Shown here piece after piece: positions 1 through 32,000 of a stretch of 32,000 nt of DNA. Position 1 is the first letter of the stretch. Every line of letters starts with the position of its first letter. This DNA is from Candidatus Saccharimonadota bacterium (GTDB taxonomy: Archaea; Nanohalarchaeota; Nanosalinia; Nanosalinales; Nanosalinaceae): positions 1,020,001 through 1,052,000 of the forward strand of contig CP012986.1 in assembly GCA_001761425.1 (NCBI GenBank), written 5' to 3'. The notes below the pieces were generated by a model, which had not been told where the DNA came from, did not search any database, and worked only from the letters and a program-made list of their open reading frames with translations. A program made the translations under genes and the position numbers.

Positions 1-269
1 ACACACCAGTATTCCACGTCAACACAGCACAGGTTTCATGCACATTTGAAGAAATCAAATCCACCATGAACCCAAAGACAGGAGAGACAATCGAAGAAGA
101 CCCAGACTACATCAAACAGGGTCAGGCAGCAAAGGTCACAATCAGACCACAGCAGCCACTAGTCATCGAAGCAAACGGAGACATCCCACAGATGTCACGC
201 TTCGCAATCAGAGACATGGGACAGACAGTCGGAGCCGGACAGGCCCTATCCGTCGAAGAAAAGGAATAG
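1..269 (+). CDS. tuf: Translation elongation factor aEF-1 alpha, C-terminal fragment (5' end lies outside the window)
   Basis: Frame 3 is open from base 3. The translation TPVFHVNTAQVSCTFEEIKSTMNPKTGE...RFAIRDMGQTVGAGQALSVEEKE has the conserved domain-3 end of archaeal EF-1alpha (RFAIRDMGxTVGAG). The stop is TAG at 267-269. An S10 gene lies downstream, as in the archaeal str cluster. Confidence 0.9.
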   Translation, partial: TPVFHVNTAQVSCTFEEIKSTMNPKTGETIEEDPDYIKQGQAAKVTIRPQQPLVIEANGDIPQMSRFAIRDMGQTVGAGQALSVEEKE

Positions 270-301
270 AAACTCCTCGAGAGTTTTGAGTTCCATCTTC
301 A

Positions 302-354
302 AGCCATGCACTGCATGGCTCACCCCATTTCTCTTTCCATATATCTCTTTTTTC
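302..354 (+). terminator. Candidate terminator after tuf: 9-bp hairpin followed by pyrimidine/T-rich tracts
   Basis: AGCCATGCA (302-310) pairs with TGCATGGCT (312-320). This is followed by CATTTCTCTTTCC and CTCTTTTTT (345-353). Oligo-T tracts are archaeal termination signals. Confidence 0.4.
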
Positions 355-429
355 AACTTAACTTCCGAATGAAGCATCTGACAGTCCAATAAACCAGTTT
401 TTTAACAAACTGTAACAAAGAATTTTCCA

Positions 430-1539
430 GTGACTGAACGGATTGACAGCCTCGATACCCTGAAAGGCCTTGCGATCATCTCAGTGATCTACATTCACAG
501 CAAGTTCTTCTTCAGCTCCCGGGAGATAGCTGAGGCCCTGAATTTTGTACTTGCAAACACTTCCCGGTTCGCCGTACCTGCCTTCTTCCTTACCTCAGGT
601 TTCCTCCTAGGCAGAAAAATCAAAGAGAAAAACGATTTATCATTCATCCGAAGACAGCTTGAGAGCATAGGCCTGTACTATCTACTTGCCTCAGCGATCT
701 ACATAATACCTACAGTAGCTATCCTCCATGCTAACCAGTACCTGAAGCTAGAGGTAGTATCTAACTGGTTGAAGCCTGTAAACATAGGAGTTCAAGGCCT
801 TTTCAACTTCCTATACCTCGGAAAAGCAATAGCTCCTTTCCTGTGGTTTTTCACAGCACTTTTCTACTCCCTGATAGGAGTGTATGCATTCACAAGAAAA
901 TACAGCGCTAAGTATCTAGTCCTGGGTTCCGCAGTTCTCCATGCATCACTGGTACTCTCGAACACGTACCTGTTCTGGGAAGGCCCTTTGCTTCCTGTAG
1001 AGGACGCTCTCTTCTTCGGCCTTCTTTTTACCTCAACCGGTTTCTGGATAGAGAAACAGGATTTTCAAAAGCTCTGGAGTGAAAAGACCCTGCTCGGACT
1101 GACAGGCCTTTTCTTTCTACTTAACCTTCTGGAAAGAGTGTTTATCTCCCTGAAAGTTCCTTCATGGGACATTTATTTCTGGGAGGGATTTTTCTGGGGT
1201 CCTTACTCGCTGTTCACAGCCCCGATGACAGTTTTTCTCTTTCTCTACCTACTGAAAAAACCAGATTTGGGAAACGACAGCAGGATCAACCTCTACGGAA
1301 AGTATACCCTGACAGGCTATATTCTACACCCTATAATTATCGGAGGACTTGTAGGCCTGAGCCTGGTACTTGAAGCTCTTCTACCCCTCCAGATTATGGG
1401 CACTCTGGCCTGGGACCTGGTTCTTTTCCCCTTTGCCTGTGTCCTGACTATGGAGACAGCAGTAAGAAACCAGGACAGGTTTAACTACGCGGTCAGAAAG
1501 ATGAAGGCCTTCGGAGAGAAAGCGAAGCGGTTCAGGTAA
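430..1539 (+). CDS. Acyltransferase-3 family (OafA/NolL-like) polytopic membrane protein
   Basis: 369-aa ORF with a GTG start. The N-terminus is IDSLDTLKGLAIISVIYIHS, followed by RFAVPAFFLTSGFLLG. This is the typical signature pattern of acyltransferase_3 proteins. About 9-10 hydrophobic segments are visible. Confidence 0.7.
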   Translation: MTERIDSLDTLKGLAIISVIYIHSKFFFSSREIAEALNFVLANTSRFAVPAFFLTSGFLLGRKIKEKNDLSFIRRQLESIGLYYLLASAIYIIPTVAILHANQYLKLEVVSNWLKPVNIGVQGLFNFLYLGKAIAPFLWFFTALFYSLIGVYAFTRKYSAKYLVLGSAVLHASLVLSNTYLFWEGPLLPVEDALFFGLLFTSTGFWIEKQDFQKLWSEKTLLGLTGLFFLLNLLERVFISLKVPSWDIYFWEGFFWGPYSLFTAPMTVFLFLYLLKKPDLGNDSRINLYGKYTLTGYILHPIIIGGLVGLSLVLEALLPLQIMGTLAWDLVLFPFACVLTMETAVRNQDRFNYAVRKMKAFGEKAKRFR

Positions 1540-1584
1540 TAGGCCTTAATATCATTTATAAGATTTAACTCCGAACGGTTTTGT

Positions 1585-1893
1585 ATGCAGAGAGCAAGAG
1601 TAAAGCTGAGAAGTACCGACCAGGGAAAGGTTGACAGCCTGGCAGATGAAATCCTCGAGATCGGCGGCGAATATAACGCAAAGGTTTCAGGACCTGTACC
1701 GCTTCCAACACAGGAAATGGAAGTGACAACGAGAAAAGCTCCAGACGGAGAAGGAAGCTCTACAATCGAACACTACGAGATGCACGTACACAAAAGACTC
1801 ATCGATATCACAGAGTCCGAAAGAGCTTTGAGACAGGTCATGAGAGTCCACGTACCAGAAGGCGTAGACATCGAAATCGAACTACAGGAATAA
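1585..1893 (+). CDS. rps10: 30S ribosomal protein uS10
   Basis: 102-aa ORF: MQRARVKLRSTD...GPVPLPT...HKRLIDI...IEIE. The size and conserved blocks match archaeal S10, and it sits downstream of EF-1alpha. Confidence 0.9.
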   Translation: MQRARVKLRSTDQGKVDSLADEILEIGGEYNAKVSGPVPLPTQEMEVTTRKAPDGEGSSTIEHYEMHVHKRLIDITESERALRQVMRVHVPEGVDIEIELQE

Positions 1894-2095
1894 ACACAAG
1901 GCCCTTCAAACAGGGAAAAACCTGTCCAAATTTAAAACTTCTAACAACTACTTTTTCTACACAGATTTGACGTACAGTTGACTAAGAGAAATGGGCCATT
2001 GAGCCCGTCAAGTATTGCCAACTGCTACGGCAGTTATTGCCGGAGATCGAAAACTCGGAAGAGTTTTCTCGATCCGACGCAAATACTTCGTATTT

Positions 2096-2713: not shown

Positions 2714-3841
2714 ATGGAAGTTGGGAGAAAGATTGATCTTTTCGGTGTCTTGGCGATTCTACTTTTTGGAGCGGTTCTCGGCGGGGTGGCGACTTACCAG
2801 AATATGGATACCCGCCTAGACAGTATTGAGTCACAGGTTTCTAACGGTTCTGATACTACTACGCGGATTATTTATGTTAACTCAACCAGTAACGGTCTTC
2901 CCGAGCTCTATGATATGGTAGATGACTCTGTTGTCTCTATCGCTGCATACGGACCAGAGCCTTCTGAAGGATCAGGATTCATCTACAGCAGAGAAGGATA
3001 TATCGTTACCAACGAACACGTTATCGAGGGCTCGACAGATATAGAGGTCACTTTCACGGATGGGACCACAAAAGTGGCTGAAGTCGTAGGAGAGGATCCT
3101 TACACAGATCTTGCGGTTCTCCAGGTTGATAAAGAAGGCCTTCAGCCTATCGATGTCGGCAACTCCACCTCTGTAGAGGAAGGGGAAGACGCCATCGCAA
3201 TTGGAAATCCTTTCGGCCTAAGAAGCTCGATGACGAAGGGAATCATTTCAGCTAAAGGCAGAACCCTGAGGATTACACAGCAGTTCTCCATCCCTAACGT
3301 TATTCAGACAGACGCAGCTATCAACCCTGGAAACAGTGGAGGACCACTCCTTAACAAGTACGGCGAGGTAATAGGAGTAAACACTGCAATAGATACCCAG
3401 ACAGGAACATTCTCAGGAGTAGGATTCGCAGTACCATCAAACACTGTAAAGAGAGTCGTACCACAGCTAATATCCGAGGGAGACTACGAGCATCCATATC
3501 TAGGGGTGAGAGGCCTTAACGTAGGCCCAGAAATAGCAGATGAGATGGGAATGGAGGAGGCCTCAGGCTTCATTATCACAGAAGTACCTAACGGGACAGC
3601 AGCAGACAGAGCAGGCCTCAGAGGCGGACAGTACCAGGCAAATATCCAGGGCCAGAACATCATGCTTGGCGGAGATATCATAGTAGAGATAGAAGATACA
3701 GAAGTTAGAAGCCTACAGGATGTACTCACGTTCCTGGCCAGAGACGCAGAAGTCGGAGATACAGTAGAAGTAACAGTTATCCGTGACGGAGAGGAAAGAA
3801 CCTTCGATCTGACACTTGAAGCAAGGCCTGAAGCGAATTAA
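2714..3841 (+). CDS. htrA: HtrA/DegP-family trypsin-like serine protease with C-terminal PDZ domain and N-terminal membrane anchor
   Basis: The catalytic triad contexts are TNEHVI, DLAVLQV and GNSGGPLLN. A PDZ-like tail is present (GFIITEV...GLRGGD...GDIIVEI). The N-terminal TM is LFGVLAILLFGAVLGGV. Confidence 0.85.
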   Translation: MEVGRKIDLFGVLAILLFGAVLGGVATYQNMDTRLDSIESQVSNGSDTTTRIIYVNSTSNGLPELYDMVDDSVVSIAAYGPEPSEGSGFIYSREGYIVTNEHVIEGSTDIEVTFTDGTTKVAEVVGEDPYTDLAVLQVDKEGLQPIDVGNSTSVEEGEDAIAIGNPFGLRSSMTKGIISAKGRTLRITQQFSIPNVIQTDAAINPGNSGGPLLNKYGEVIGVNTAIDTQTGTFSGVGFAVPSNTVKRVVPQLISEGDYEHPYLGVRGLNVGPEIADEMGMEEASGFIITEVPNGTAADRAGLRGGQYQANIQGQNIMLGGDIIVEIEDTEVRSLQDVLTFLARDAEVGDTVEVTVIRDGEERTFDLTLEARPEAN

Positions 3842-4824
3842 GGCCTGTATCTGAGGAAGGCCGCAAGGCCTCCGAAGTTATCTATTCTTTCTCCTGCTTC
3901 ATGGTCCTTATGTACGATTATTACTTCTCCACCCTGTCTTTCAACCATTTTAGAGATCTCAGGGTTTTTTCTCCTCTTTTCAGCGGTTATCAGCAGTTTT
4001 TTGACCGCTCCAAGCTCTGCGAATTTCTCGACCTGTTCTCCGTAATCGACCATTCCGTCATCTCTGAGTTCGTCTAGGAATTCCTCGACTTCCTGGGTTT
4101 CTTCCGAGATGCGTGAGCTTTCTACCACTTTCTTCAAAGCTCCTCTCTTTATGGCTTCGTGAAGGCCTGTTTTTCCGGTTACCGATGTATCCTGGAGAAA
4201 GATTTTTTCCTTCAAATCTTCCGAAAGGGCGTTATACACCTTGTTCTTCTCGTGGCCAGGCCCTGCAAGAATGACTTTATCCATATCTTTTGCTGACCGT
4301 TTGAGGACCTTGTTGACCTGATTGTAGAACTCTTTACCCGATTTCTGGTCCGGGTACATCTTCCCAGGGATGTTCTCCGCTACATCGGACAGATCCTTTA
4401 TCCCGGATTCTTCGACTACGTAGAGATTGGCCTCTCCTTTTTCCACAAGACAGAAAAGAACTTTGTAGGCCTTGTTTTCCTGTGCCTCCATCACCCGTTT
4501 CCATTCTTCATCTGTGAAGTCTTTCCATATCTCGAATTCTTTTTCCTCCTCAAGGTTGAACGTATGGTATCCCAGTTCCACGTCTTCCACCGCTTCAGTT
4601 ATTTCTCCGGTAACCCTCAGTCTATCCTCCTGATATTCGGTCTTCTCAACCCTTAACCTGAGCTTGCATGTCTTTTTCTCACGGCCGTCAAGCTTGGTTC
4701 TCTGCGTCAAGGCCCTGACCTCATCCCCTTCAGCGACGAGGTCCTTCATATACCATAGATCATCACGGTTCTCCAGGCGTATCCTTGCGTATCCGTCCTC
4801 CCTACTGCTTTTGATTATCTCCAT
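3838..4824 (-). CDS. pelA: Pelota (Dom34-like mRNA surveillance / ribosome rescue factor)
   Basis: 328 aa. The N-terminus RIRLENRDDLWYMKDLVAEGDEVRALTQRT and the eRF1-like central and C-terminal domains fit archaeal Pelota. Its stop overlaps the convergent htrA stop by 4 nt. Confidence 0.85.
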   Translation of the reverse strand: MEIIKSSREDGYARIRLENRDDLWYMKDLVAEGDEVRALTQRTKLDGREKKTCKLRLRVEKTEYQEDRLRVTGEITEAVEDVELGYHTFNLEEEKEFEIWKDFTDEEWKRVMEAQENKAYKVLFCLVEKGEANLYVVEESGIKDLSDVAENIPGKMYPDQKSGKEFYNQVNKVLKRSAKDMDKVILAGPGHEKNKVYNALSEDLKEKIFLQDTSVTGKTGLHEAIKRGALKKVVESSRISEETQEVEEFLDELRDDGMVDYGEQVEKFAELGAVKKLLITAEKRRKNPEISKMVERQGGEVIIVHKDHEAGERIDNFGGLAAFLRYRP

Positions 4825-4876
4825 ACAAATTGAAAGGCCTCTTACAAATAAAAACCCCCAAACGAAAAACTGGGTT

Positions 4877-6019
4877 ATGGAGCAAGGTTTCGCTGTCGTC
4901 CTCGTCGCAGGCCTCGCAGTTTTTGGCCTGATGTTTATCGCGGGCGAATCAGATCTGACCTCACCGGATTCACCCTCTCAGGAGAAAGTCGTTCTCCTAG
5001 AGAACAACGTTGGTGACGTAGGAGGAGCTGAAACCGACATAAGAAACGTCTCTTTCAGAGATTTCACAGTAGGAGAGACAAGAGGGAATATACAGGCCTA
5101 TAACGCCCAAAACGCAGACATCTCCAACGGTTTCTGGTCAGGAGACAGTATTAATATTGAATACAATGCTACACAGCCTACAAGAGGTCAGATCAACTTT
5201 GAGGTCTTAGGTAGGACAGGCGAAGGCAAGATATATGCAGAGGTCAACGGAGACAGGGTATTTGAGGCTGCAACAGTTACTGGAGCTACTCCTGAAATCA
5301 ACTTCTCTTCTGAAGTATTGAAAAGCGGTATTAACGATATTAAGATTGGTACAACAAAAGGAGGCCTCTTCAGCTCTGCCAGTTATACTCTGGAAGAGGT
5401 AGAGGTCACAGTTAATGATAGAAAGTTCCATGATTTCAGTGATTCATTCGAACTCTACTCTCAGGAGCTTGAGAACTATGTTTCCAGCAATCTATCGTTC
5501 ACTATCCCTGTGAGTTCTTCAAGGCCTGAATCAGATCTTAAAATTGATGTAAACGGTAATGAGATTTTTTCAGGTTCTATTGTCCGTTCTACTCAGCAGG
5601 TTGAAATTGATAAGCGTGAAGCAGATCTAACACCGGGTTATAATACAATCGAGTTCAGCACGGATGGCGAGGCGAAGTATGAAATCAATAACCCTGAGAT
5701 AGTTATGCGTTACCTGGGGAGAACAAGATCTGAGACAGTTAACATGAACTTTGAGATGACTCAGAGGCAGATTTCCTACAGTGAGGAGGATGGTACAGAG
5801 GAAAAGATTACCTTTGACTACCAGAAGCTTCTACCATCAACCAACGAACTGACTTTTACCCTGAACGGAGATGAATATACACACCTGCCTGAAAATGGTT
5901 ATAACGAGGTAGATGTGGATGCAGAGAGTTTTGAGGAGGAAAACAGTTTGACTATCCGGAGCGATGGATCTTTCAGGATGCAAAACCTTCAAATACTATC
6001 AGAGAGGATTGACGGTTAG
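4877..6019 (+). CDS. Hypothetical N-terminally anchored extracellular protein with three ~110-aa internal beta-rich repeats
   Basis: The ATG at 4877 is chosen because the longer ORF from 4664 overlaps pelota. The N-terminus is MEQGFAVVLVAGLAVFGLMFIAG. Repeated blocks are VNGDRVF...IKIGTTKG, VNGNEIF...IEFSTDGE and LNGDEYT...LTIRSDGS. Confidence 0.6.
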   Translation: MEQGFAVVLVAGLAVFGLMFIAGESDLTSPDSPSQEKVVLLENNVGDVGGAETDIRNVSFRDFTVGETRGNIQAYNAQNADISNGFWSGDSINIEYNATQPTRGQINFEVLGRTGEGKIYAEVNGDRVFEAATVTGATPEINFSSEVLKSGINDIKIGTTKGGLFSSASYTLEEVEVTVNDRKFHDFSDSFELYSQELENYVSSNLSFTIPVSSSRPESDLKIDVNGNEIFSGSIVRSTQQVEIDKREADLTPGYNTIEFSTDGEAKYEINNPEIVMRYLGRTRSETVNMNFEMTQRQISYSEEDGTEEKITFDYQKLLPSTNELTFTLNGDEYTHLPENGYNEVDVDAESFEEENSLTIRSDGSFRMQNLQILSERIDG

Positions 6020-8743
6020 ATGAGCGACGACGATGATAGTGGCTCAGGAGCAATGGGCAAGCTGGTAAAATACGCTCTGATACTTGGAATAAGTGTAATC
6101 TTTCCCTTCTTCCTCCCTATCTACATTTTCTGGAAATACATCAAATTATGCGTCAAATTCTACTTTAAGGCCCTCTATCTGATTATCAGATTCCCAATAT
6201 GGCTTTTCATCCAGCTCCCACTACACTACCTAGGCGTAAGTATGCACAAGATATCAGAGGCCTTCAGCGATGCATACGGCGTAATAATGACTAAAAAGAA
6301 GAGATACGGTCTTCTCTTCGGAATACTGTTCTTCTTGATGCTACAGGCATTCCTCCCAAGAAATGTAGACGCAGTTATCTCTTTCCTAACACAGGGAACA
6401 TTCATAGTCCCTCTAATCGTACTTATACCGTTCTTCATAACGTTCATGGTAGCACTTGTCTCCTCACACTTCGGTACACCCAACATAGCCAGAAAAGATA
6501 GGCCAGGCGGTCTTGACACGGGGATGAAGAGTGGAGCCGCAGCGGGAGCGACAGCAGCAGCTATGGCAGGTCAAGCAGGTATGAAGGCCTACAATAACAA
6601 AGAAGAGATAGAGGCTGCGGGAAAAGCAGCTAAAAGCATGGGTGAGAGCGTAATGGCTGAAGATATGACAGTGGTTCTGGCCGATATGCCTTTCATTGGA
6701 AGTATGGTTGGAAGCGGGGCGGCAGCCGGCGGAGGAGCCGCAGCAGGTGGTGGAGCAGCAGGAGCTACTGCTGCCACAGGAGGAACGGCACTTGCTGTAA
6801 TCTTGGCAGCTCTTTTACTGGCATTTTTAGGATTCATTGTTATCTCTATTATACTGACAGCGATTTTGTGGAGCACTTTGATGTGGTTTACATCCTTCCT
6901 TGCTCCATTAATGAGTCCGATACTTGGAGCTATTGGCCTAGGTCAGGCCTATGGTGACTGGATTGGCTCAGAGGTCGCGAACAACTTCCTGCCTCAGGTT
7001 GATCTTACAGCAGAGAGAAGAATGATTGAGCAGGCAGGGGCGAAGATAGGATGTGCACTTCAGGGACCTGCTTGTTTGAGGCAGTGGAGATTGAACAATA
7101 CGGCAAGGCCTGGCTCCAAAGACGTAGGTGAGGAGTACAAGCTCCAGGTTGAGGAGTTCTCCATAGGAGGTCAGGGCGGTGTTGACATCGCTTACAAGAA
7201 ACCAAGCTATGAGGTTCCGGTCTCTTTCCTCCTGCTGAACACACGTCACGGACTGAAAGGTATCGATGCCAACAGAGTCAAGTGGCGGGTGAGGATCGGT
7301 GATGCTGATAGAACAGGTAAGAAGTCGTACTGCAGCACTGACTGGAAAGGAGTTAATGGCACTGTAGGAGGCGAAGGTACAATACTACCAGGTACCTCTT
7401 TCAGTCCAAGGCTAAATGACCTTGAAAATCTTACGCTGAAGGAGTGTGAGATGCTTCACCCAGCTCTAGGGCATGATTATACCGGAGAGCTTGATGTGAA
7501 GTATAAATACTCATCACAGTCCACGCTCTACGTGAGAGCGATGTCAAGACAGAACATGAGAGATGAGGAGATTACTCCGGAGTTCAAGAAATCGGAGACA
7601 GCAGATACTCCTGTCGAGACATTCATCAATGTTAAAGAGCCTATAACCTACGTTGAGGAGGAGAACACCGCAGATGGTGAAGGGAGAAGTATACCGTTCA
7701 CGGTAAAGGTAGGAACCAATACTGATCTGTACGATGTCGAGTACAAGGTTGATGCTGATGACTTCCAGGTAATTGACTCTTCGAGAACAGAACATCAGAA
7801 CGAATCTTGTATAGGCCTGAGTCCGAACAACGGTAATGGAGAGAACGTCTATGGGCTATCCGACAGGACTCAGGAAAGGATGGAACTAAGTATAGATCCT
7901 GATGATACCAGCACGTGGTATTACAAAGGGAACAATCCTACACCGGCCAGATGTACGTTTGAACTCAAGGATAGAGGCCTGATCAGTGCCACCGGAGAGA
8001 CCTTGACGATGAGAGTGGACGCCAACTACACTGTTGTAATTGAGGAGACTTCAGATCCTTTCGAGGTCAGAAACACAATGTGTGCTGAGGGTATTAACTG
8101 TCCAATACTCTTCCAGATAAAGGCTGATGAGTTCTCAACCTTGTTGGACGAGGGGTTCCCTCCAGAGGATAAATGGGATCAGGAAGACACTGATCCTATT
8201 TTGAGTAAACCTTACGCAAACTACAACAATGCAACATGTAAGGGTATAGACGCAAGAAGCGGATGCACCGCTGTACCGAAGTACCAGTACAGAAGTCCTT
8301 ATTCAGAATCCAATAAGACTGATATAGAGGATGACGAGATAGCGGTTGAATGGAACCAGAACACCGCACAGACAGGTAAGCTCTTCAGCTGCGGACTCAG
8401 AAACGCTGATGGAAACGATGGAAACTTTAGCCAGGAAGCGGTAGGAATACCTATAGACGACATAGAGGAAGTGAAAGGGACCAACAGCCACGTCTTCGAG
8501 ATGAAAGATGGAGATCTAGAAGTGAAGGAATACGAACAGGAGATTTCGATAGATGCTCTCCCTATAGTTCCTAATTGGCTTGTTGACACAGAATATACGG
8601 AAACTAAGACAGCAACAGGATGTAGAGAAGGTAAACCCATATATGAAGTCAACTGTGCAAACATAGATGCAAGCGACGTTGATAGCTTGACTGAAGCACG
8701 TACACTGTTCGTGAGCGTAGTTGGCTCCTGCACAAAATCATAG
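6020..8743 (+). CDS. Hypothetical 907-aa polytopic membrane protein with Gly/Ala-rich loops and a large Cys-rich extracytoplasmic C-terminal region
   Basis: The start directly follows the upstream stop (TAG ATG). There are several N-terminal TM segments. GAAAGGGAAAGGGAAGATAATGG lies at about 6711-6790. The C-terminal ~550 aa carries about 16 Cys and blocks ending in xYxY beta-strand motifs (LDVKYKYSS, VDANYTVVIE), like the downstream lipoproteins. Confidence 0.7.
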   Translation: MSDDDDSGSGAMGKLVKYALILGISVIFPFFLPIYIFWKYIKLCVKFYFKALYLIIRFPIWLFIQLPLHYLGVSMHKISEAFSDAYGVIMTKKKRYGLLFGILFFLMLQAFLPRNVDAVISFLTQGTFIVPLIVLIPFFITFMVALVSSHFGTPNIARKDRPGGLDTGMKSGAAAGATAAAMAGQAGMKAYNNKEEIEAAGKAAKSMGESVMAEDMTVVLADMPFIGSMVGSGAAAGGGAAAGGGAAGATAATGGTALAVILAALLLAFLGFIVISIILTAILWSTLMWFTSFLAPLMSPILGAIGLGQAYGDWIGSEVANNFLPQVDLTAERRMIEQAGAKIGCALQGPACLRQWRLNNTARPGSKDVGEEYKLQVEEFSIGGQGGVDIAYKKPSYEVPVSFLLLNTRHGLKGIDANRVKWRVRIGDADRTGKKSYCSTDWKGVNGTVGGEGTILPGTSFSPRLNDLENLTLKECEMLHPALGHDYTGELDVKYKYSSQSTLYVRAMSRQNMRDEEITPEFKKSETADTPVETFINVKEPITYVEEENTADGEGRSIPFTVKVGTNTDLYDVEYKVDADDFQVIDSSRTEHQNESCIGLSPNNGNGENVYGLSDRTQERMELSIDPDDTSTWYYKGNNPTPARCTFELKDRGLISATGETLTMRVDANYTVVIEETSDPFEVRNTMCAEGINCPILFQIKADEFSTLLDEGFPPEDKWDQEDTDPILSKPYANYNNATCKGIDARSGCTAVPKYQYRSPYSESNKTDIEDDEIAVEWNQNTAQTGKLFSCGLRNADGNDGNFSQEAVGIPIDDIEEVKGTNSHVFEMKDGDLEVKEYEQEISIDALPIVPNWLVDTEYTETKTATGCREGKPIYEVNCANIDASDVDSLTEARTLFVSVVGSCTKS

Positions 8744-9448
8744 TAGAAGAAGGAAGTAGTTCCTCAAGCCAAGCACAAGTCCATAGACACCTATCATGAA
8801 CAGGACTTCTCTGGAGATATCTCCTTCAACTTCTCTTTCTATATACAGAGCGACGGGCACAATTACCAAGGCCTTCATGACAAAGATCCCGTATTCACCA
8901 AGGAACTCTATGAAAAACTGGGCCAAGGCCCTCGACTCACTGAGGCCTCGTTCCAGCGCTTTCACTGTGGATGCAGCGTCCAGGAAATGTGTAAGGACGG
9001 GAAAGAGGTAAAGACTTGTCTTCCTTTTCCCGATTATTAAGTGGATCAGATAGAATGGTAGGAATACTGCGACTGCGAGGCCTGTTATCTGGATGAAGAG
9101 AGGTATATCTGGTTTTAATCCTGTGATTTTCCATAAAGCGGTGATAGCTGTCAGGCCTGTTACTGCCTCGAAGAGGTAGGCCTTTCTCTGTCTGTACACG
9201 TGCGTGATTATGAATGTTAGGAGGGTTATCGCTGTCAGTGTGGCTGTGATGCTGGCTGCTACTGCTTTCTGTGCTGCTATGTTAGCTGAGGTGAGTGATA
9301 TGAGAATTATGTAGGGTATTAGAACCGCAGTGAAGTATCTGTTGATGCTGTGGACCTGTTTTTTTCTTCTTTTCTTTATTGTGTAGGATGTAAGGAGTAT
9401 GGTGTAAGCCAGTATTATGGAGTCGAGAGCTATGTTGGTTGCTGTCAT
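8738..9448 (-). CDS. Hypothetical polytopic membrane protein (6-7 TM; possibly DUF63-like)
   Basis: 236 aa, almost entirely hydrophobic helices. The motif THFLDAASTVKALERG resembles archaeal DUF63 proteins from memory only. It is encoded antisense to the surrounding operon, and its stop overlaps the upstream gene end. Confidence 0.55.
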   Translation of the reverse strand: MTATNIALDSIILAYTILLTSYTIKKRRKKQVHSINRYFTAVLIPYIILISLTSANIAAQKAVAASITATLTAITLLTFIITHVYRQRKAYLFEAVTGLTAITALWKITGLKPDIPLFIQITGLAVAVFLPFYLIHLIIGKRKTSLYLFPVLTHFLDAASTVKALERGLSESRALAQFFIEFLGEYGIFVMKALVIVPVALYIEREVEGDISREVLFMIGVYGLVLGLRNYFLLLL

Positions 9449-9519
9449 TGGTTTGGAAGGCCTCTTTGAGGTTTTGAAAGTATAAGTCTTTTAACCGAGG
9501 GATTCCTATATTACTTATC

Positions 9520-10506
9520 ATGGATCAGAAGTATCTATTTTTGACCGTGCTCGCGGCTACACTGGTTTCTTCTGGCTGTATCGGTGGCGGAGGAAATGGT
9601 GATGGAGGCCTGAATATAGGGCCTGGTGGTAAAACTATCACTGTTACTAATTTTGAGGTTCAGCCTTCTGAGATAAGAGCTGGTTCAACGACGCAGATCC
9701 GTCTTGGTATCGTTAATACGGGAGGTATGTCTTCAAATGTTACTATTGCGTCGAATAAAAGTTCTGAGAATCTGGGGCGTGGTGTCTTGATCAATAGCTG
9801 TCCTGACATCTTTGGAATAAAGGATTTCGATGCTTACAGCAGCAGGAATCCTGATCCTGCGGAGGAATACTATCTTGAACCGGGAAACGAGCTTGAGATA
9901 TCCTGGAGTCTGAAGAATGACAATGAGGATATCCCTCTGAACGGTTACACCTGTCCGATCCGCATGCAGATCCCATTCGATTACGGGGTTTCAGCTTATC
10001 AGCAGCTTGAGGTGAAGGAGAATCAGGAGACTCAGGGAGCTACAACTCTGGAGAGCAAGACATCTGAAGGGCCTTTGAACATCCATCTTGAGACTATCGG
10101 AAGCACGGCGGATCAGGGGCCTCCAAAGTTCATCGAGGGCGATAACAAGGAGGTTCTCGTTCAGCTTGAGAACACGGCTCCAGAAGAAAGTTCATATCAG
10201 GGACTCGTTGATCTGGATTCACCGAGGATCGAGTCTTCTGAGAACTACATGATAAACTCGACTTCCTGCAACATGGAAACGACAGCAGGCGGAGGCCTTG
10301 TTGATAGTCTGAAGATTGATAGAACTCTCAGACTTTACGAAGGCCAGTCAAGAGTAATACGGTGTGGAATCGAGCTCTTGGATAATCTTGAGGAAGACGG
10401 CGAGATATCTCAGCCAAGCATAAGAGGGCAGGTCACCGCTCATGCGAACTACACTTACATAAAGGACCTTGGGGAAAGAGAAATTGAGGTGAAATACCGT
10501 GGATAA
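9520..10506 (+). CDS. Putative secreted lipoprotein, two CARDB-like beta-sandwich domains (paralogue 1 of 3)
   Basis: Signal plus lipobox: LAATLVSSGC followed by a Gly-rich tether. VTNFEVQPSEIRAGSTTQIRLGIVNTGG is a CARDB-like first strand pattern. Domain ends are FDYGVSAYQQLEV and ANYTYIKDLGEREIEV. Confidence 0.7.
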   Translation: MDQKYLFLTVLAATLVSSGCIGGGGNGDGGLNIGPGGKTITVTNFEVQPSEIRAGSTTQIRLGIVNTGGMSSNVTIASNKSSENLGRGVLINSCPDIFGIKDFDAYSSRNPDPAEEYYLEPGNELEISWSLKNDNEDIPLNGYTCPIRMQIPFDYGVSAYQQLEVKENQETQGATTLESKTSEGPLNIHLETIGSTADQGPPKFIEGDNKEVLVQLENTAPEESSYQGLVDLDSPRIESSENYMINSTSCNMETTAGGGLVDSLKIDRTLRLYEGQSRVIRCGIELLDNLEEDGEISQPSIRGQVTAHANYTYIKDLGEREIEVKYRG

Positions 10507-20425: not shown

Positions 20426-20447
20426 GTTTACTTAATGGTGACAACAG

Positions 20448-20457: not shown

Positions 20458-20505
20458 CTTACCAATACCACAGCGATCTTGGAATCAAGGTTATAGAATA
20501 CCAGA

Positions 20506-21887: not shown

Positions 21888-21926
21888 GTTTATTCACCGT
21901 GAGGTAATAAAAGATTGGTAACTTTT

Positions 21927-23147
21927 TTATAGGTTCTGATATCGATCCTGTAAAGTTTCAAGACCTATTTCTTCTGGAACTCCTCTCTCAAACTCTTCAC
22001 CCCTGCTAACCGCGTCAGCATAGCTCCAGAGATTTGCGGAAGTATCCTGTTCCGGTTCCTGGTTTATGTAGTCTATAATCGATCCCGGGGATAAGTTACC
22101 TTCGCAGAAAATCAGGTAGTTGCCGTTCTCTGTCTCATAGTCTTCCTGTAGAAGAGGTTCGATAATTTCATCCGGGTAATCGTTCAGCTTTCTGTCATAC
22201 GGATTGATCGCCAGAAAATCCCATCCTATCCACGTGTTTAACTCCTCATACTCTTTACCGTATTCATCTGTGAAGGCCTCAATGTGATCTTCTATCATAT
22301 TCTGTATAGCCGGATCTAGGTCATTCATATCTATGCCTTCCGCAGCCCCCTGTTCGAGAGCTAATTTTGCTTTACCTTCAGTAGATGTGCTGTCAAGAAG
22401 ACTTAGGTTCGCCCTATCCGTATCAGGATCACCGTATCTCTTCATACCGTTAACAGGAGTATCTTTGGCAGCGATAGTCCTCAGATCAAATTCGTGAGGT
22501 ATCGCATACTGAGCCAGATATCCTTGAGGTATACCGTCTTCTCTCCAGTCCTCCACCATTCCATCGACGCCATCAGGATAGAAGTATATATCACTTCCAC
22601 CGCTGGAGCTTCGAGGTTTCATGACAAGAGGAACATCTCCGATAATATCCTCCTGAACCTCCTCTATCACTTTCTCAACATCATCGTACTTCTGAAGATA
22701 ATGATCTACCGGCTGATAACCTGGTACGGTGCCAGGATCATCCCAGAAAGCCCAGTTCTGCTCGGCCTTATCACCCAGAAAACTGGGGATAGGAGCAGGA
22801 TTAATCATCTGAACACTTTCAGATAAGGCCTCAAAATCCTCAGAAGAAATATTTCTCCTGAAAGCAGCTGTCGGAAGAAAAGTTAGCTCACCCAGGCCTT
22901 CACTATCCAGTTCAGCGTTCATATCGGAGAGATCTTCGCCTCCCAGTTTAACCTCTTCCGATACATCAATATCCTCCTGTTTAAGGCCTATTCTGTTCAG
23001 CAGACCGTTATCTCTAAGAAATGTCTTCCTGTGGTTGGTCTTGGCACTGGCACTGTTCTGTGCGGATGCCCATGCAGTAGGCGCGTCAAAATCATCGTAA
23101 AGGCCTTCTCTGAAGTTAATTCTATCCACCTGTGAAACTAAAGTCAC
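21927..23147 (-). CDS. Divergent ATP-grasp fold enzyme (peptide/amide ligase-like)
   Basis: 406 aa with a GTG start. ATP-grasp landmarks appear in the correct order: PLVMKPRSSSGGSDIYFY (Gly-rich loop), YLAQYAIPHEFDLRTIAAKD...GMKRYG, and WIGWDFLAIN...NYLIFCEGNLSPG (the xVDxx...xLExNxxPG equivalent, with a ~27-aa insertion). Confidence 0.55.
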   Translation of the reverse strand: MTLVSQVDRINFREGLYDDFDAPTAWASAQNSASAKTNHRKTFLRDNGLLNRIGLKQEDIDVSEEVKLGGEDLSDMNAELDSEGLGELTFLPTAAFRRNISSEDFEALSESVQMINPAPIPSFLGDKAEQNWAFWDDPGTVPGYQPVDHYLQKYDDVEKVIEEVQEDIIGDVPLVMKPRSSSGGSDIYFYPDGVDGMVEDWREDGIPQGYLAQYAIPHEFDLRTIAAKDTPVNGMKRYGDPDTDRANLSLLDSTSTEGKAKLALEQGAAEGIDMNDLDPAIQNMIEDHIEAFTDEYGKEYEELNTWIGWDFLAINPYDRKLNDYPDEIIEPLLQEDYETENGNYLIFCEGNLSPGSIIDYINQEPEQDTSANLWSYADAVSRGEEFERGVPEEIGLETLQDRYQNL

Positions 23148-23189
23148 GTTTTCGTCGATTCCAAGAAGAAAAGATAGGAAAGGAGGAGC

Positions 23190-24017
23190 TTAGAGATCGC
23201 TCCTCTCGAGATCCTGGAAGTAACCGAAGACTTCTTCTTCAAGTTCTCCTTCGTCGTGGAGATCTTCCATGTAGGAGCTGAAGTCGTCGGATGCTCCGAT
23301 CTCGTCCATGTCAAGCCATCTGCCGTTAGGCCTTTCATCGGAGACTCCGTACTCTCCGAGTCTGAACTCGTCGTCTTCAAAGTCTGTTCCTTCAAGAACA
23401 TCCATGACCTGGGCCTCGTAATCGCTGGTGTTCTCAATAACTTCTTCGTAACCAACGCCTTCGAGCTGACTGTCTAGGGCCGTGACTGAGTAACCCATGA
23501 ATGCATCTCTGACACCATCACTTTCGTCAAGCAGGCCTTCAGAGAGGCCTTCATAGGCAAATTCCGAAGCTTCAGTCTGTGTCTCTGTCTGAGTATCTGT
23601 TTCAGTCGGAGACTCTGTCTCTGTAGGCGTTTCTGTATCTACAGGAGTCTTGGTTTCAGTAGGGGTCTCAGTGGAGTTATCTACCGGAGTCTGTTCTCCG
23701 CTTTCTTCCTTCGTGATCGGAGATCTCAACCTGTACGGGATCGCATCGCCGACAGCACCCCAAGCCTCGCCAGCCTGACCCGCGGCCGCCGATCCTACTC
23801 CTGCTGCGTAGTCAACGGAATCCAGATCTCCGTCTTCAGCGAAGTCCACAAAACCTCCAGCGGCGGCAACGCCCGCTGCCTGAAGGAAGTTTCTTCTTTC
23901 AGGGTCGAAGTTTCTGTTGTTGTCATTACGAATTATATCATAGGATTTTTCTGCGGCAGACCTAACGTCTCCCGGAAGTTCTGTAAACGCTTCTTTAGCC
24001 TCATCAGCCCAGCTCAT
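23190..24017 (-). CDS. Highly acidic hypothetical protein with internal Tat-like RRNFLQAAG motif and Thr/Glu/Pro-rich linker
   Basis: 275 aa. ERRNFLQAAGVAAAGGF lies at residues ~39-55. The linker is TETPTETKTPVDTETPTETESPTETDTQTETQTE (DNA ~23568-23695). GGTGA lies 9 nt upstream of the ATG (24027-24031). Confidence 0.65.
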   Translation of the reverse strand: MSWADEAKEAFTELPGDVRSAAEKSYDIIRNDNNRNFDPERRNFLQAAGVAAAGGFVDFAEDGDLDSVDYAAGVGSAAAGQAGEAWGAVGDAIPYRLRSPITKEESGEQTPVDNSTETPTETKTPVDTETPTETESPTETDTQTETQTEASEFAYEGLSEGLLDESDGVRDAFMGYSVTALDSQLEGVGYEEVIENTSDYEAQVMDVLEGTDFEDDEFRLGEYGVSDERPNGRWLDMDEIGASDDFSSYMEDLHDEGELEEEVFGYFQDLERSDL

Positions 24018-30593: not shown

Positions 30594-30629
30594 ATAAGGA
30601 GTAACTTGTATCATTTAGAGGTCATTAAA

Positions 30630-30767
30630 ATGCAGTTGACAGTACAGAGCATAATGAACAGGTCTATGGAGAATCCCGACCTACTTGTGATCGGATTAGC
30701 AGTAGGTTACGTACTTGCTAAAATTCAGGCTAGAAGAAGTGGAATGGGAGGCATGGGAGGCCTCTAG
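30630..30767 (+). CDS. Possible 45-aa single-TM micro-protein (not in the supplied ORF track)
   Basis: ATG at 30630 is preceded by GAGGT 7 nt upstream. The product is MQLTVQSIMNRSMENPDLLVIGLAVGYVLAKIQARRSGMGGMGGL. Its stop TAG abuts the next ORF start at 30768. Confidence 0.35.
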   Translation: MQLTVQSIMNRSMENPDLLVIGLAVGYVLAKIQARRSGMGGMGGL

Positions 30768-31043
30768 GTGATAAAAATGGGAAAGTTTTTCACAGACCAG
30801 TTCGAGCATTATATGGACAATATTGAGAACACTGTAAACGAGTTCGTATTGGTTGTCCTGTCGTTCGGAGCGATCATGGCGACACTCTACACAGTTACTA
30901 ACGGCGCACAGTATGACTGGGTAAGCTTTGGACGTATACTCTTCCCATGGGTCTCGATGCTGGCACTGATGATCATAGCGAGAGAGCTCTGGCTCCTAAA
31001 CAACAAAGTCGAACACTACATTAGACAGCAGTCAGGTGAATAA
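30768..31043 (+). CDS. Small hypothetical two-TM membrane protein
   Basis: 91 aa from GTG 30768 (alternative ATG at 30777). TM segments are FVLVVLSFGAIMATLYTV and ILFPWVSMLALMIIA. Confidence 0.5.
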   Translation: MIKMGKFFTDQFEHYMDNIENTVNEFVLVVLSFGAIMATLYTVTNGAQYDWVSFGRILFPWVSMLALMIIARELWLLNNKVEHYIRQQSGE

Positions 31044-31048
31044 GTAGA

Positions 31049-31630
31049 GTGGCTCCAACCCCACCAGGATTCGAAGAGTTACTCGCAAGCGGAGGAGAAA
31101 TAGGCCTCTTCTCCGGGATTCTACCCTTCATTATAACCTATACGATATTCTTCTTCCTGATAAGAAGAATAGGCCTTCTGGAAGAAAACAATGACACATT
31201 TGCAGCTATCCTGGCGATCGCATTCGCATTTTACACATCAAGATTCATCATTATGAATCCGGGATATCAGCAGTTCATGCTGGATTATGTCAGCCGTATA
31301 GCCTTGATAACAATAGGCCTACTAGGACTCTTGGTAGTACTTGCGTTCGTAGGCCTGGATCTCAGCAGCGATGTTCAGGGCCTTGGATATATCATGGCCT
31401 TGATAGTCATCGTAGCGTTCACGGTCTCAGGAGGCATACCCGTCATCGCCGGTGACGGTGCACTTGGACAGGTCCAGGAGATTATCAACTGGATGATAAA
31501 CAGCGGGACGATCTGGATACTGGCAGTGCTAGGCCTGCTCGGCTGGACATTGAGAGACAGCGATGACAGTGACAGCAATGGAGGCCTTCCAGAGATCTTC
31601 AGTGCTCTTGGAAACAACAGCGAGGGATAG
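31049..31630 (+). CDS. Hypothetical polytopic membrane protein (paralogue of the next ORF)
   Basis: 193 aa. GTG start with AGGTGA 9 nt upstream (31034-31039). GLFSGILPFIITYTIFFFLIRRIGLLEENNDTFAAILAIAFAFY aligns with the N-terminus of the next ORF. Confidence 0.6.
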   Translation: MAPTPPGFEELLASGGEIGLFSGILPFIITYTIFFFLIRRIGLLEENNDTFAAILAIAFAFYTSRFIIMNPGYQQFMLDYVSRIALITIGLLGLLVVLAFVGLDLSSDVQGLGYIMALIVIVAFTVSGGIPVIAGDGALGQVQEIINWMINSGTIWILAVLGLLGWTLRDSDDSDSNGGLPEIFSALGNNSEG

Positions 31631-31636
31631 ATCAGT

Positions 31637-32000
31637 ATGGGCGCATTCGACCAGATACTGACAATCATGTGGGATATGGGGTTAAACCTCTTTTTCCCAT
31701 GGCTTGTCATCCTCGCAGTAACCTACGGCCTACTTAACAAGTACGAGGTCATCAGCGAGGAGGATGGAGTCAACGGAGCCATAGCTATCGGAGTAGCATT
31801 CCTCGGTGTTCTAGGCCTTTCAGGAACCTCAGGAATATTCACCAGCTTTGCAGCTGCCATAACTTTCGGTGTTTTCGGAGTCCTAGGCCTGATGGTCCTC
31901 ATGGCTGTCGCAGGATACGATATCACAGAACACGCTGAAGACTCGACTTCAGGATTCGCAGTATTTGCAGCCCTTATAGGACTTATCTCATTCATGGCTG
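31637..32000 (+). CDS. Hypothetical polytopic membrane protein, 5' part (runs off the window; not in the supplied ORF track)
   Basis: I read frame 2 from ATG 31637 to 32000 with no stop: MGAFDQILTIMWDMGLNLFFPWLVILAVTYGLLNKYEVISEEDGVNGAIAIGVAFLGVLGL... It is paralogous to 31049-31630. The minus-strand ORFs 31375-31710 and 31723-31995 are its shadows. Confidence 0.55.
   Translation, partial: MGAFDQILTIMWDMGLNLFFPWLVILAVTYGLLNKYEVISEEDGVNGAIAIGVAFLGVLGLSGTSGIFTSFAAAITFGVFGVLGLMVLMAVAGYDITEHAEDSTSGFAVFAALIGLISFMA

Follow-up and report, generated by a model that had tools for sequence, protein, structure and literature searches.

Short palindromes as targets of DNA enzymes

Archaea offer a precedent for a GGCC methyltransferase paired with a T:G repair enzyme, in the GGCC system MthTI with the T:G glycosylase Mig.Mth. 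The tetramer CTAG is rare in Halobacteria. Uptake sequences, which include USS of Pasteurellaceae and DUS of Neisseriaceae, are bacterial and tied to known competence receptors. The persistent orphan m4C methyltransferases of archaea that form the b2c family target the 4-bp palindromes CTAG (Halobacteria), GGCC (Sulfolobus acidocaldarius), AGCT, and GTAC (PMC10609329). Orphan methyltransferases have been associated with the palindrome HIP1 (GCGATCGC), and the ideas on how HIP1 arises and what it does are hypothetical (PMC4390886). In cyanobacteria, the presence of HIPs tracks that of the cognate methyltransferase (PMC4390886).

The stretch of DNA analyzed here (the window, 32,000 bp) lies on a 1.125-Mb contig of a very small, halophilic symbiont of the Nanohaloarchaeota (DPANN), which agrees with the reduced archaeal genome proposed in an earlier sequence-only reading. 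The window is rich in AGGCCT, a palindrome of the type II-enzyme kind that equals the StuI site and has GGCC, a HaeIII-type target, as its core.

Abundance and placement of AGGCCT in the window

The excess of AGGCCT in the window is real. The hexamer is present in exactly 113 copies (3.53 per kb), whereas 6.6 and 7.9 copies are expected from order-0 and order-1 models, and 100 dinucleotide shuffles yielded a mean of 8.06 (sd 2.8, maximum 18). The window-wide enrichment is about 14-fold, and AGGCCT ranks first among hexamers, ahead of a runner-up with 53 copies. The sequence-only reading had estimated about 110 copies and a more than tenfold excess, which the exact count against about eight expected bears out, and all eight of its example coordinates recur among the exact sites. 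Its GC estimate of 40–45% was too low, the true value being 46.2%. As it had claimed, most GGCC tetramers are embedded in AGGCCT (113 of 179, 63%), and the four flank types that it had named as a minority total 36. Tetramers with two, one, and no matching flanks number 113, 44, and 22, whereas independent flanks would give 102, 66, and 11 (p = 6e-6).

The same reading had held that a count close to an order-4 Markov expectation would speak against the excess. The order-4 ratio is indeed 1.11 (2.2 at order 3), but the order-4 test is ill-posed because the pentamers AGGCC and GGCCT, with 135 copies each in the window, mostly consist of AGGCCT itself. The excess is upheld by synonymous shuffling, described below, and by AGGCCT-poor sister genomes of similar GC, which contain 0.20 copies per kb. 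The density of AGGCCT is unchanged in the flanking regions of the same contig, among them the genes for RNA polymerase and EF-2, and the same pattern is present in independent JGI, Logan, and NCBI assemblies and in isolate genomes.

The sites are dispersed over positions 1–32,000, and their spacing is close to Poisson (mean 281 bp, CV 1.07). They start at positions 465, 669, 795, 1104, 1353, 1505, 1541, 2293, 2436, 2565, 2643, 3136, 3511, 3558, 3613, 3824, 3841, 3866, 4163, 4467, 4835, 4909, 5094, 5362, 5522, 6258, 6585, 6945, 7106, 7813, 7975, 8869, 8943, 9078, 9153, 9178, 9458, 9606, 10293, 10615, 10658, 10798, 12350, 12670, 12717, 13273, 13971, 14531, 14835, 14901, 15201, 15236, 15675, 15795, 16101, 16180, 16868, 17119, 17823, 17864, 18835, 18898, 19878, 20006, 20033, 21164, 22274, 22826, 22894, 22984, 23101, 23328, 23533, 23545, 24199, 24313, 24404, 24461, 24626, 24733, 24928, 25037, 25225, 25471, 25528, 25624, 25671, 25866, 25950, 26244, 27252, 27288, 27824, 27954, 28227, 28341, 29577, 29598, 29733, 29785, 29817, 30016, 30517, 30566, 30758, 31102, 31171, 31315, 31351, 31531, 31582, 31813, and 31885. 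A triplet of sites (3824, 3841, and 3866) occupies 48 bp (3824–3871) where an HtrA-like protease gene (2714–3841, + strand) meets the convergent pelota gene (3838–4824, − strand). Intergenic sites are located 2 nt past the stop codon of an acyltransferase gene at 430–1539 (site 1541–1546), between the divergent genes 8738–9448 (−) and 9520–10506 (+) (site 9458–9463), 5 nt past the stop codon of gene 11335–12345 (site 12350–12355), immediately downstream of gene 12680–14440 (−) (site 12670–12675), and between the latter gene and gene 14579–19525 (−) (site 14531–14536). The site at 30758–30763 is outside the gene set used and may be the end of a 45-aa JGI gene at about 30630–30767. No flanking position carries more than 0.13 bits; the sites are therefore not copies of a longer repeat. 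Very close pairs are slightly fewer than expected (10 versus 15.6, P = 0.02), and the spacings are enriched for multiples of three.

Within genes, AGGCCT is read in the frames xxA-GGC-CTx (66 sites), xAG-GCC-Txx (27), and AGG-CCT (14), with 57 sites in genes on the + strand and 50 on the − strand. The use of all frames and both strands, with Gly-Leu commonest, followed by Ala and Arg-Pro, matches the sequence-only reading, as does the similar density in non-coding DNA (six sites in 2.2 kb, 2.7 per kb) and coding DNA (3.6 per kb). The non-coding sites amount to an approximately 11-fold excess over the ~0.5 expected. Synonymous-codon shuffling of the coding DNA gives an expectation of 12.7 sites (sd 3.3, maximum 22), compared to 107 seen, and the excess remaining in the individual reading frames is 8.4, 7.6, and 8.8 times. 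The driving process acts on DNA and not on codons, as the reading had proposed.

All six positions of the word are driven, and the flanking purine and pyrimidine weakly. Codons ahead of Gly-Leu have A as their third base in 91% of cases, compared to 51% ahead of Gly and another residue (p = 2e-13). CCT makes up 88% of the Pro codons that follow Arg versus 45% elsewhere, and AGG makes up 94% of the Arg codons ahead of Pro versus 23% elsewhere. The +1 base is a pyrimidine at 79% of the sites and at 53% elsewhere. The information in the motif is graded, with the core above A/T and A/T above R/Y, and extends to ±1 (RAGGCCTY). Among one-off variants of AGGCCT, inner ones are depleted and outer ones enriched. 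The transition neighbours are under-represented in the window, at about 0.64 of expectation (AGGTCT/AGACCT 18 versus 28; AGGCTT/AAGCCT 12 versus 18.7), and AGGTCT/AGACCT also in clade C (5 versus ~15). The depletion of these words, which the sequence-only reading had raised, is thus present but not transition-specific, since the transversion neighbour AGGGCT/AGCCCT is as depleted (6 versus 15.7 expected). AGATCT is not drained (24 versus 22.6 expected). The graded information and the enriched outer variants fit any protein-DNA recognition, not that by a methyltransferase alone.

Positions at which the protein permits AGGCCT are filled in 106 of 144 cases in the window (~74%). The filling is even across genes and nearly independent of neighbouring sites. 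Gly-Leu dipeptides number 102 in the window proteins versus 66 expected, whereas the reverse dipeptide Leu-Gly is at expectation (65 versus 66). Per 1000 aa of the same orthologues, permissive sites are more numerous in AGGCCT-rich genomes. In every gene, the process fills about three-quarters of the places that synonymous change leaves open to it, and it adds Gly-Leu to the proteins.

Distribution among nanohaloarchaea and candidate enzymes

The trait is bimodal among 40 related loci, with a filled fraction of 0.51–0.82 in AGGCCT-rich and 0–0.29 in AGGCCT-poor genomes. The rich genomes fall into at least four clades, each recovered in 200 of 200 bootstraps and each with poor sisters, and 0 of 200 bootstraps made the rich genomes monophyletic. 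The trait is switched on or off between lineages. In genome L035, 15% of the permissive sites are filled. Where its sister L032 has 16 conserved sites, L035 has AGGTCT six times, AGACCT twice, AAGCCT three times, and AGGCCT three times, and the outer A remains at 79%. Between relatives in general, AGGTCT is the commonest one-step counterpart of AGGCCT. AGGCCT is decaying in L035, and sites erode once the process is lost. Wherever synonymous change allows, the two cytosines are hit to about the same extent; ordinary GC-to-AT mutation bias could therefore account for the decay, which is no proof of methylation. In other species of the phylum, GGCC is strongly avoided, with 4 copies versus 31.7 expected in Ca. 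Nanohalobium constans, 5 versus 37 in L011, and 5 versus 56 in L019. This avoidance is taken to show that GGCC-specific enzymes circulate in the phylum.

No DNA methyltransferase was found within the ~52 kb of this contig examined or in the other fetched nanohaloarchaeal loci. The C5 methyltransferase and Vsr endonuclease to which the sequence-only reading had pointed gave no match in phmmer searches of the fetched nanohaloarchaeal loci with M.HaeIII and Vsr, and the M.HaeIII query does pick up C5 methyltransferases in loci outside this set. In a REBASE survey, the AGGCCT-rich genome M3_22 (L009) has a single restriction-modification gene, which encodes an orphan methyltransferase of type II with m4C as its predicted product (PMC10609329, Tables 1–2). 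The survey lists zero m5C methyltransferases, zero Vsr, and no restriction enzyme for M3_22 (PMC10609329). The link to a methyltransferase comes from this one surveyed genome and from a predicted enzyme. The paper on the cultured AGGCCT-rich strain BNXNv reports a type III Mod/Res system as the only one.

Candidate mechanisms and related systems

It is plausible, although we hold it tentatively, that AGGCCT is an archaeal counterpart of HIP1, kept by a recognition-dependent bias that is tied to a candidate mobile, solitary DNA methyltransferase. An ongoing process that recognizes the whole site would drive AGGCCT to near-saturation genome-wide. The switch between lineages would be a mobile gene that encodes a sequence-specific DNA enzyme; the most probable candidate is a solitary (orphan) type II methyltransferase recognizing AGGCCT or GGCC, which may be N4-cytosine specific. 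Heteroduplex repair or recombination could be biased toward the strand or allele with the complete, methylatable site; alternatively, methylated sites might be individually favoured. Vsr-type correction of T:G to C:G cannot by itself account for the accumulation. The mechanism of HIP1 is itself hypothetical, and no methyltransferase-linked mechanism is known to yield a 14-fold, saturating enrichment.

Very-short-patch repair, which the sequence-only reading had suggested, would couple a C5 methyltransferase acting on AGGCCT to a Vsr- or Mig-type T:G enzyme turning AGGTCT and AGGCTT into AGGCCT. The shortage of transition neighbours, the frequency of AGGTCT as a counterpart between relatives, and the contrast between inner and outer one-off variants fit this mechanism, and Dcm/Vsr of E. 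coli and MthTI/Mig.Mth likewise have a palindromic methyltransferase target with under-represented inner transition neighbours. However, T:G correction affects cytosines only and predicts baseline outer bases. The drive on the outer A and T, which matches that on the inner C, refutes it as the only cause. The equal depletion of the transversion neighbour, the undrained AGATCT, another correctable word, and the absence of Vsr and C5 methyltransferases from the fetched loci and M3_22 also make it very improbable. The effect is more than 10 times larger than in Dcm/Vsr and MthTI/Mig.Mth, and that of Vsr on CCWGG in E. coli is far below 14-fold. A codon-pair or dipeptide preference for Gly-Leu written as GGC-CTN has practically no chance of being correct. 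It could account for the 58% of sites in the Gly-Leu frame and the spacings in multiples of three, but is refuted by the roughly eightfold excess in every frame, the non-coding excess, and the A forced onto the codon ahead of Gly-Leu; outside the A_CT context, GGC is no favoured Gly codon, at 130 of 737. Nor is there appreciable probability that the sites are left over from a short mobile repeat of the MITE or REP type or were created in assembly. High copy number is all that speaks for it, and the blank flanks, the recurrence in independent assemblies and isolates, and the in-frame position of sites at synonymous positions of conserved genes refute it.

An abundant dimeric protein recognizing RAGGCCTY at individually favoured sites, with a role in chromatin, segregation, SMC loading, or defence self-marking, is doubtful. 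The graded palindrome, the slight shortage of close pairs, and the decay after loss of the determinant are consistent with such binding. However, each of ~4,000 sites per 1.1-Mb genome would need a sizeable advantage in a symbiont whose population is small, sites are filled uniformly and almost regardless of their neighbours, nucleoid proteins rarely need an exact hexamer, and one specificity in at least four clades requires repeated protein transfer or many losses. It is unlikely that AGGCCT is an uptake or transfer signal, with a surface or pilus receptor importing AGGCCT-containing DNA and recombination spreading the alleles by molecular drive. Uptake is the only established mechanism for whole-word, near-saturating enrichment in all frames with an effect on proteins; USS and DUS share these features as well as a density of at least ~1 per kb and lineage specificity. 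Weaker outer-position variants are partly enriched, as are sub-optimal uptake sequences, and a type IV pilus-like ATPase locus adjoins the window. However, this locus is generic and nothing ties it to the trait, a hexamer discriminates self DNA only ~14-fold, and we know of no archaeal uptake sequence. Known uptake sequences are 9–12 nt long, non-palindromic, and normally diverge as lineage dialects, whereas AGGCCT recurs identically in at least four separate clades.

Among methyltransferases, the b2c enzymes resemble that predicted in M3_22 in being solitary; the former are type II enzymes acting on short palindromes and the latter a predicted orphan m4C enzyme. In contrast to AGGCCT, the b2c targets are not reported to be hyper-abundant. 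HIP1 and the alternative cyanobacterial HIPs (Elhai 2015, PMC4390886) share with AGGCCT a short palindrome that contains a type II enzyme target and reaches at least ~1 copy per kb. Both HIP1 and AGGCCT are present in non-coding DNA as well as in all frames of coding DNA. Each is lineage-specific, the exceptions being lineages that lack the word or have switched to another, and in both the one-off variants concentrate at outer positions. The cognate methyltransferase is only inferred for AGGCCT. AGGCCT is a different word in another domain of life, 6 instead of 8 bp long, and occurs at 3.5 per kb compared to ~1 per kb for HIP1. Unlike HIP1, AGGCCT is found in at least four clades beside sisters without the trait, in a phylum in which other species avoid its GGCC core, and it fills ~74% of the synonymous opportunities and shifts the proteome.

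AGGCCT excess in the window

The palindromic hexamer AGGCCT is present in 113 exact copies in the 32,000 bp of the window, corresponding to 3.53 copies per kb at a GC content of 46.2%. The expected number of copies is 6.6 based on base composition and 7.9 based on dinucleotides, and dinucleotide-preserving shuffles (n = 100) contain 8.06 ± 2.8 copies, with a maximum of 18. AGGCCT is the most common hexamer of the window, twice as frequent as any other, and accounts for 63% of its 179 GGCC tetramers. The runner-up palindromic hexamer, AGATCT, occurs 24 times versus 22.6 expected. The density of AGGCCT in approximately 20 kb of the contig flanking the window is equal to that within it. The example coordinates put forward by the sequence-only reading are all correct according to the exact list of sites.

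The sequences flanking AGGCCT contain at most 0.13 bits of information per position, with no conservation past the core, and the spacing of the sites is near exponential, with a CV of 1.07. The only sign of regularity in the spacing within the window is a marginal shortage of pairs closer than 40 bp. The almost complete lack of flank information, together with the near-exponential spacing, indicates that the sites are independent of one another rather than derived from a longer repeat.

The sequence-only reading had proposed to dismiss the excess if the count were within two-fold of a higher-order Markov expectation. Formally this is the case for an order-4 model (ratio of 1.11; 2.2 for order 3), but the test is uninformative because the pentamers AGGCC and GGCCT (135 copies each) are mostly the hexamer itself. 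GGCC tetramers with two, one, and no matching flanking bases number 113, 44, and 22, versus 102, 66, and 11 expected under independent flanks (p = 6e-6), which indicates that the GGCC population has two components, full sites and background. By two better baselines, the AGGCCT excess is real. A synonymous-codon shuffle that retains the proteins and codon usage yields 12.7 ± 3.3 sites, with a maximum of 22, versus 107 observed in coding DNA, and the excess over this shuffle is 8.4-, 7.6-, and 8.8-fold in the three frames. Relatives of similar GC content that are poor in the word have 0.20 AGGCCT per kb versus 3.53 in the window.

The coding copies are distributed among the frames as 66 xxA-GGC-CTx, 27 xAG-GCC-Txx, and 14 AGG-CCT, and the load is alike in genes of either strand. 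The 2.2 kb of non-coding DNA contain six copies versus approximately 0.5 expected. A translation-level cause is ruled out, since all frames and non-coding DNA are affected. Permissive sites, at which the peptide allows AGGCCT synonymously, are filled with the hexamer in 106 of 144 cases (74%; 66/85, 26/42, and 14/17 by frame). The filling is even from gene to gene and extends to the genes for RNA polymerase and EF-2 in the flanks of the contig. The glycine codon is GGC in 66 of the 74 positions at which A precedes and CT follows, compared with 130 of 737 elsewhere.

The force that maintains AGGCCT has shifted protein sequence. There are 102 Gly-Leu dipeptides versus 66 expected, and 65 Leu-Gly dipeptides versus 66. 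In the same orthologues, genomes rich in the word contain approximately 10–16 permissive sites per 1000 amino acids, and poor genomes approximately 5–12, mostly fewer than 10. Recognition also reaches weakly past the hexamer: position +1, the free third base of the leucine codon, is a pyrimidine at 79% of sites versus 53% elsewhere (p = 9e-4).

Distribution among nanohaloarchaea

The window lies within the 1,125,078-bp contig Ga0136257_100001 of JGI metagenome 3300010222. Its pelota protein is 83–91% identical to homologues from metagenome-assembled genomes, some of which are labelled Candidatus Nanohalobium sp., and all strong pelota matches are from Nanohaloarchaeota. A comparison of related genomes, as recommended by the sequence-only reading, covered loci centred on pelota from 36 GTDB species representatives as well as from closer relatives and two cultured species. 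The trait is restricted to certain lineages, and its distribution is bimodal: rich genomes have 1.8–4.1 AGGCCT per kb and 51–82% of permissive sites filled, and all others have 0–0.7 per kb and 0–29% filled.

In a tree of eight concatenated syntenic proteins (2,703 columns), the rich genomes form four clades: the window with L039 (clade A), M3_22 with L010 (clade B), L024 with Nanosalina VS9-1 (clade C), and L030, L038, and L032 (clade D). Three loci that were too short for inclusion, L003, L040, and L004, cluster with the window in a single-gene pelota tree. Each rich clade joins AGGCCT-poor sisters with bootstrap support of 200/200, and monophyly of the rich genomes is recovered in 0/200 replicates. 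Among close relatives, the trait is either cleanly on or cleanly off, and it has arisen or been lost repeatedly. Even among nearest relatives, the identity at four-fold sites is 0.36–0.44, which is saturated. Nevertheless, AGGCCT is common to 38–67% of aligned sites between relatives, as predicted if each genome were saturated with the word independently. The sole near-identical contig, L002, is 100% identical to locus L001, and gains and losses were polarised only for the pair L032 and L035.

The pyrimidine preference at position +1 (77–79%) is common to the window and clades A and B; L030, L032, and L038 of clade D lack it (42%), a hint that the recognition protein of clade D differs slightly. 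The cultured Candidatus Nanohalovita haloferacivicina BNXNv was assigned to clade B based on the 87% identity of its pelota to that of M3_22. Its locus (CP107255: 963446-984432) contains 44 AGGCCT versus 4.7 expected and 140 GGCC versus 41 (3.4-fold). Its specificity looks looser and nearer to NGGCCT, as a clade B "dialect". The loci of BNXNv, M3_22, and L010 contain many TGGCCT, GGGCCT, and AGGCCG, and approximately 45–56% of their permissive AGGCCT positions are filled.

The AGGCCT drive seems to have been lost recently in the lineage of L035 (LKMP01000004, Nanohaloarchaea archaeon B1-Br10_U2g21), whose sister L032 is very rich. The filling in L035 is 15%. At 16 amino-acid-identical positions at which L032 has AGGCCT, L035 has six AGGTCT, two AGACCT, three AAGCCT, and three AGGCCT, and the base before Gly-Leu is still A in 79% of cases versus 51% overall. 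This pattern indicates that the force can be lost and that the sites then erode, with C-to-T or G-to-A transitions coming first.

GGCC itself is avoided in three loci with 0–2 AGGCCT: that of the cultured Candidatus Nanohalobium constans LC1Nh (CP040089: 732157-753143; 4 GGCC versus 31.7 expected), L011 (5 versus 37), and L019 (5 versus 56). No GGCC depletion is observed in L016, L020, and L021, which are closely related to them. Evidently, GGCC-specific restriction pressure exists in the phylum. For LC1Nh, the entries in a REBASE survey are a type I system, a type IIG enzyme, and a single type II methyltransferase, of the m5C kind (PMC10609329). The possibility that AGGCCT is a restriction-avoided type II target in the window is contradicted by its 14-fold enrichment there; it is these other species that avoid GGCC.

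GATATC is approximately two-fold over expectation in the window (19 versus 9.1) and approximately 3.4-fold in L026 (24 versus 7.0), and GGGCCC, CATATG, ACGCGT, and GGCGCC have zero copies in the window. In many poor loci (for example L008, L012, L014, L020, L026, and L033), ACCGGT is 2.5–5.5 times more frequent than the dinucleotide expectation and CCGG, in most of them, 1.5–3 times; in the window ACCGGT is not enriched (3 versus 3.4). ACCGGT was considered as a second "dialect" and set aside, since its excess is only 2.5- to 5.5-fold and accompanies a general CCGG excess in many poor genomes. It could reflect codon-pair usage or a second, weaker word.

Candidate causes of the enrichment

Very-short-patch (Vsr) correction of T:G mismatches coupled to a C5 methyltransferase, one of the mechanisms suggested by the sequence-only reading, fails as the sole cause: the outer A/T positions are driven, a transversion neighbour is depleted as well, and AGATCT is not drained. 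Because cytosines are the only bases on which this type of repair acts, a free outer position should keep its baseline, which it does not. Gly-Leu is preceded by A in 91% of cases versus 51% for glycine followed by another residue (p = 2e-13), the proline codon after arginine is CCT in 88% versus 45% otherwise (p = 6e-4), and the arginine codon is AGG in 94% of cases before proline versus 23% otherwise. In poor genomes, the corresponding contrasts are 54% versus 49% for A before Gly-Leu and 52% versus 44% for CCT after arginine. The anticipated depletion of near-miss words one transition away was found in a mild form, at approximately 0.64 of expectation, but is not specific to transitions, as AGGGCT/AGCCCT are at 0.38.

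Searches for the corresponding enzymes gave negative results. A phmmer search with M.HaeIII covered approximately 0.8 Mb of nanohaloarchaeal DNA, of which 52 kb belong to this contig, and identified no C5 methyltransferase; the query does detect C5 methyltransferases in other loci. A query with E. coli Vsr, for which there is no positive control, had no phmmer match in the nanohaloarchaeal loci and none in viral loci either. Motif regular expressions applied to six-frame ORFs of the nanohaloarchaeal loci detected no DNA methyltransferase or Vsr. The REBASE-based survey lists M3_22 with zero m5C methyltransferases and V = 0 (PMC10609329). The contig contains only housekeeping, pilus-like, and unknown genes within 10 kb past the left end of the window and approximately 9 kb past the right end.

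Three overlapping ORFs of 328, 279, and 336 aa at 9520-12345 form an apparent operon without Pfam matches, the last ORF containing an NPPF motif. They adjoin pelota in nearly all nanohaloarchaeal loci, and the NPPF ORF is not specific to rich genomes. ORFs with this motif (e.g., 11335-12345) were rejected as methyltransferase candidates because they are core genes of rich and poor genomes alike. Two adjacent large ORFs of approximately 400 and 907 aa at 4811-8743 also have no Pfam match, and their synteny is kept across the phylum at only 26–65% identity. The sole RNA gene of the window, tRNA-Ser(GGA) at 2095-2186, overlaps an ORF of 85 aa on the other strand that is spurious. A dispersed repeat of the REP or MITE type, or an artefact, is ruled out as the source of the sites by their random flanks and by the agreement of independent assemblies.

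A scan of viral contigs for three AGGCCT within 60 bp gave at least 120 matches; among those listed, most are chance occurrences and tandem repeats. Dispersed, non-tandem enrichment was observed in L043 (13 copies in 3.6 kb) and L118 (8 copies in 5 kb), both from IMG/VR with a GC content of 36%, and in L124 (22 copies in 10.8 kb; GC 53%), at approximately 5–11 times the expectation. None of the proteins of these three loci is homologous to those of the nanohaloarchaeal loci, and no informative methyltransferase is encoded in them.

The force recognises the whole palindrome in a graded manner, with the GGCC core ahead of A/T and A/T ahead of R/Y; variants with one substitution are enriched 1.5- to 4-fold if it is at an outer position and are at 0.6–0.9 if it is at an inner one. 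The carrier of the force is gained and lost between close relatives. AGGCCT is a canonical target of type II enzymes. M3_22 is listed with one orphan type II methyltransferase of predicted m4C type, the sole and indirect sign that AGGCCT co-occurs with an enzyme recognising the word or its core, and orphan m4C methyltransferases acting on 4-bp palindromes, including GGCC, are widespread and persistent in archaea (PMC10609329, Tables 1-2 for M3_22). The presence of iterated palindromes in cyanobacteria follows that of cognate methyltransferases, and variants with one substitution likewise concentrate at outer positions there (PMC4390886). Based on the graded whole-site drive, the type II target, the orphan m4C enzyme of M3_22, and the cyanobacterial parallel, a process linked to a methyltransferase and resembling that of the cyanobacterial highly iterated palindromes (HIP) is tentatively favoured. 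A type III system is the only one reported in the BNXNv paper. In the methyltransferase-linked process, the strand or allele with a complete, methylatable AGGCCT would be preferred during repair or gene conversion; alternatively, methylated sites might be individually advantageous. The steps would lead from a mobile determinant through a methyltransferase to biased repair.

A broader version, which is possible but rather doubtful, is a mobile "genome-writing" system in which one reader protein biases repair, gene conversion between chromosome copies, or import toward full-site alleles. The reader would be an orphan, possibly m4C, methyltransferase or another protein that reads AGGCCT, and would be horizontally mobile. 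Such a system could rewrite approximately 4,000 positions, and protein sequence with them, within a lineage, and loss of its gene would result in erosion, as in L035. It is unlikely that the copies are binding sites selected for an abundant dimeric protein. A drive by uptake and recombination, as for DNA uptake sequences (DUS/USS), is the sole proven mechanism for saturating whole-word enrichment with effects on the proteome, and AGGCCT has the enrichment of the whole word, in all frames, and the proteome effect of such sequences. However, uptake words are non-palindromic and 9–12 nt long, whereas AGGCCT is a 6-bp palindrome with weak information at ±1. An uptake drive is a rather unlikely cause. 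The pilus machinery nearby is limited to a generic type IV pilus-like ATPase. A T2SSE-type ATPase of 763 aa is encoded just past the right end of the window (14132-16423 of L163). It may belong to a joint cell-surface or pilus locus with the genes at 12680-24017, which encode a 586-aa protein with Ig-like folds and a FixG_C match (12680-14440), a 1,648-aa surface-type protein with PKD, CarboxypepD_reg, and PEGA domains (14579-19525), and a run of small ORFs without family matches (19525-24017).

Comparison with known iterated palindromes

No report of AGGCCT over-representation or GGCC bias in nanohaloarchaea was found in the searchable literature. Hyper-abundant short palindromes are rare, and the classic example, cyanobacterial HIP1, is still without an accepted mechanism. 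A genome-writing system, if confirmed, would be the first saturating sequence drive in archaea and a tractable model for the HIP1 problem. The phylogenetic contrast between rich and poor genomes should enable the determinant to be found by presence/absence comparison of complete 1-Mb genomes. Cultured strains represent both states, BNXNv the rich and LC1Nh the GGCC-avoiding one, which makes methylome and binding experiments feasible. AGGCCT is a strong compositional marker that skews the statistics of codon pairs and dipeptides, will influence how these DPANN genomes are binned by k-mers, and predicts extreme sensitivity or resistance of the DNA to StuI- and HaeIII-type enzymes.

The effect differs from that of Dcm/Vsr in both magnitude and kind, and from uptake sequences in length and palindromic form. 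The closest known phenomenon is HIP1. Like the highly iterated palindromes, AGGCCT is a short exact palindrome far above compositional expectation, occurs in all coding frames and in non-coding DNA independently of codon usage, and is restricted to lineages whose relatives lack the word. HIP1 proper refers to cyanobacteria, with the word GCGATCGC or one of the known cyanobacterial variants. With another word and another domain of life, AGGCCT of nanohaloarchaea is therefore an analogue that falls outside HIP1 proper. The anatomy is shared with HIP1, but AGGCCT is denser and nearer to saturation, and much more can be learned from its phylogenetic pattern.
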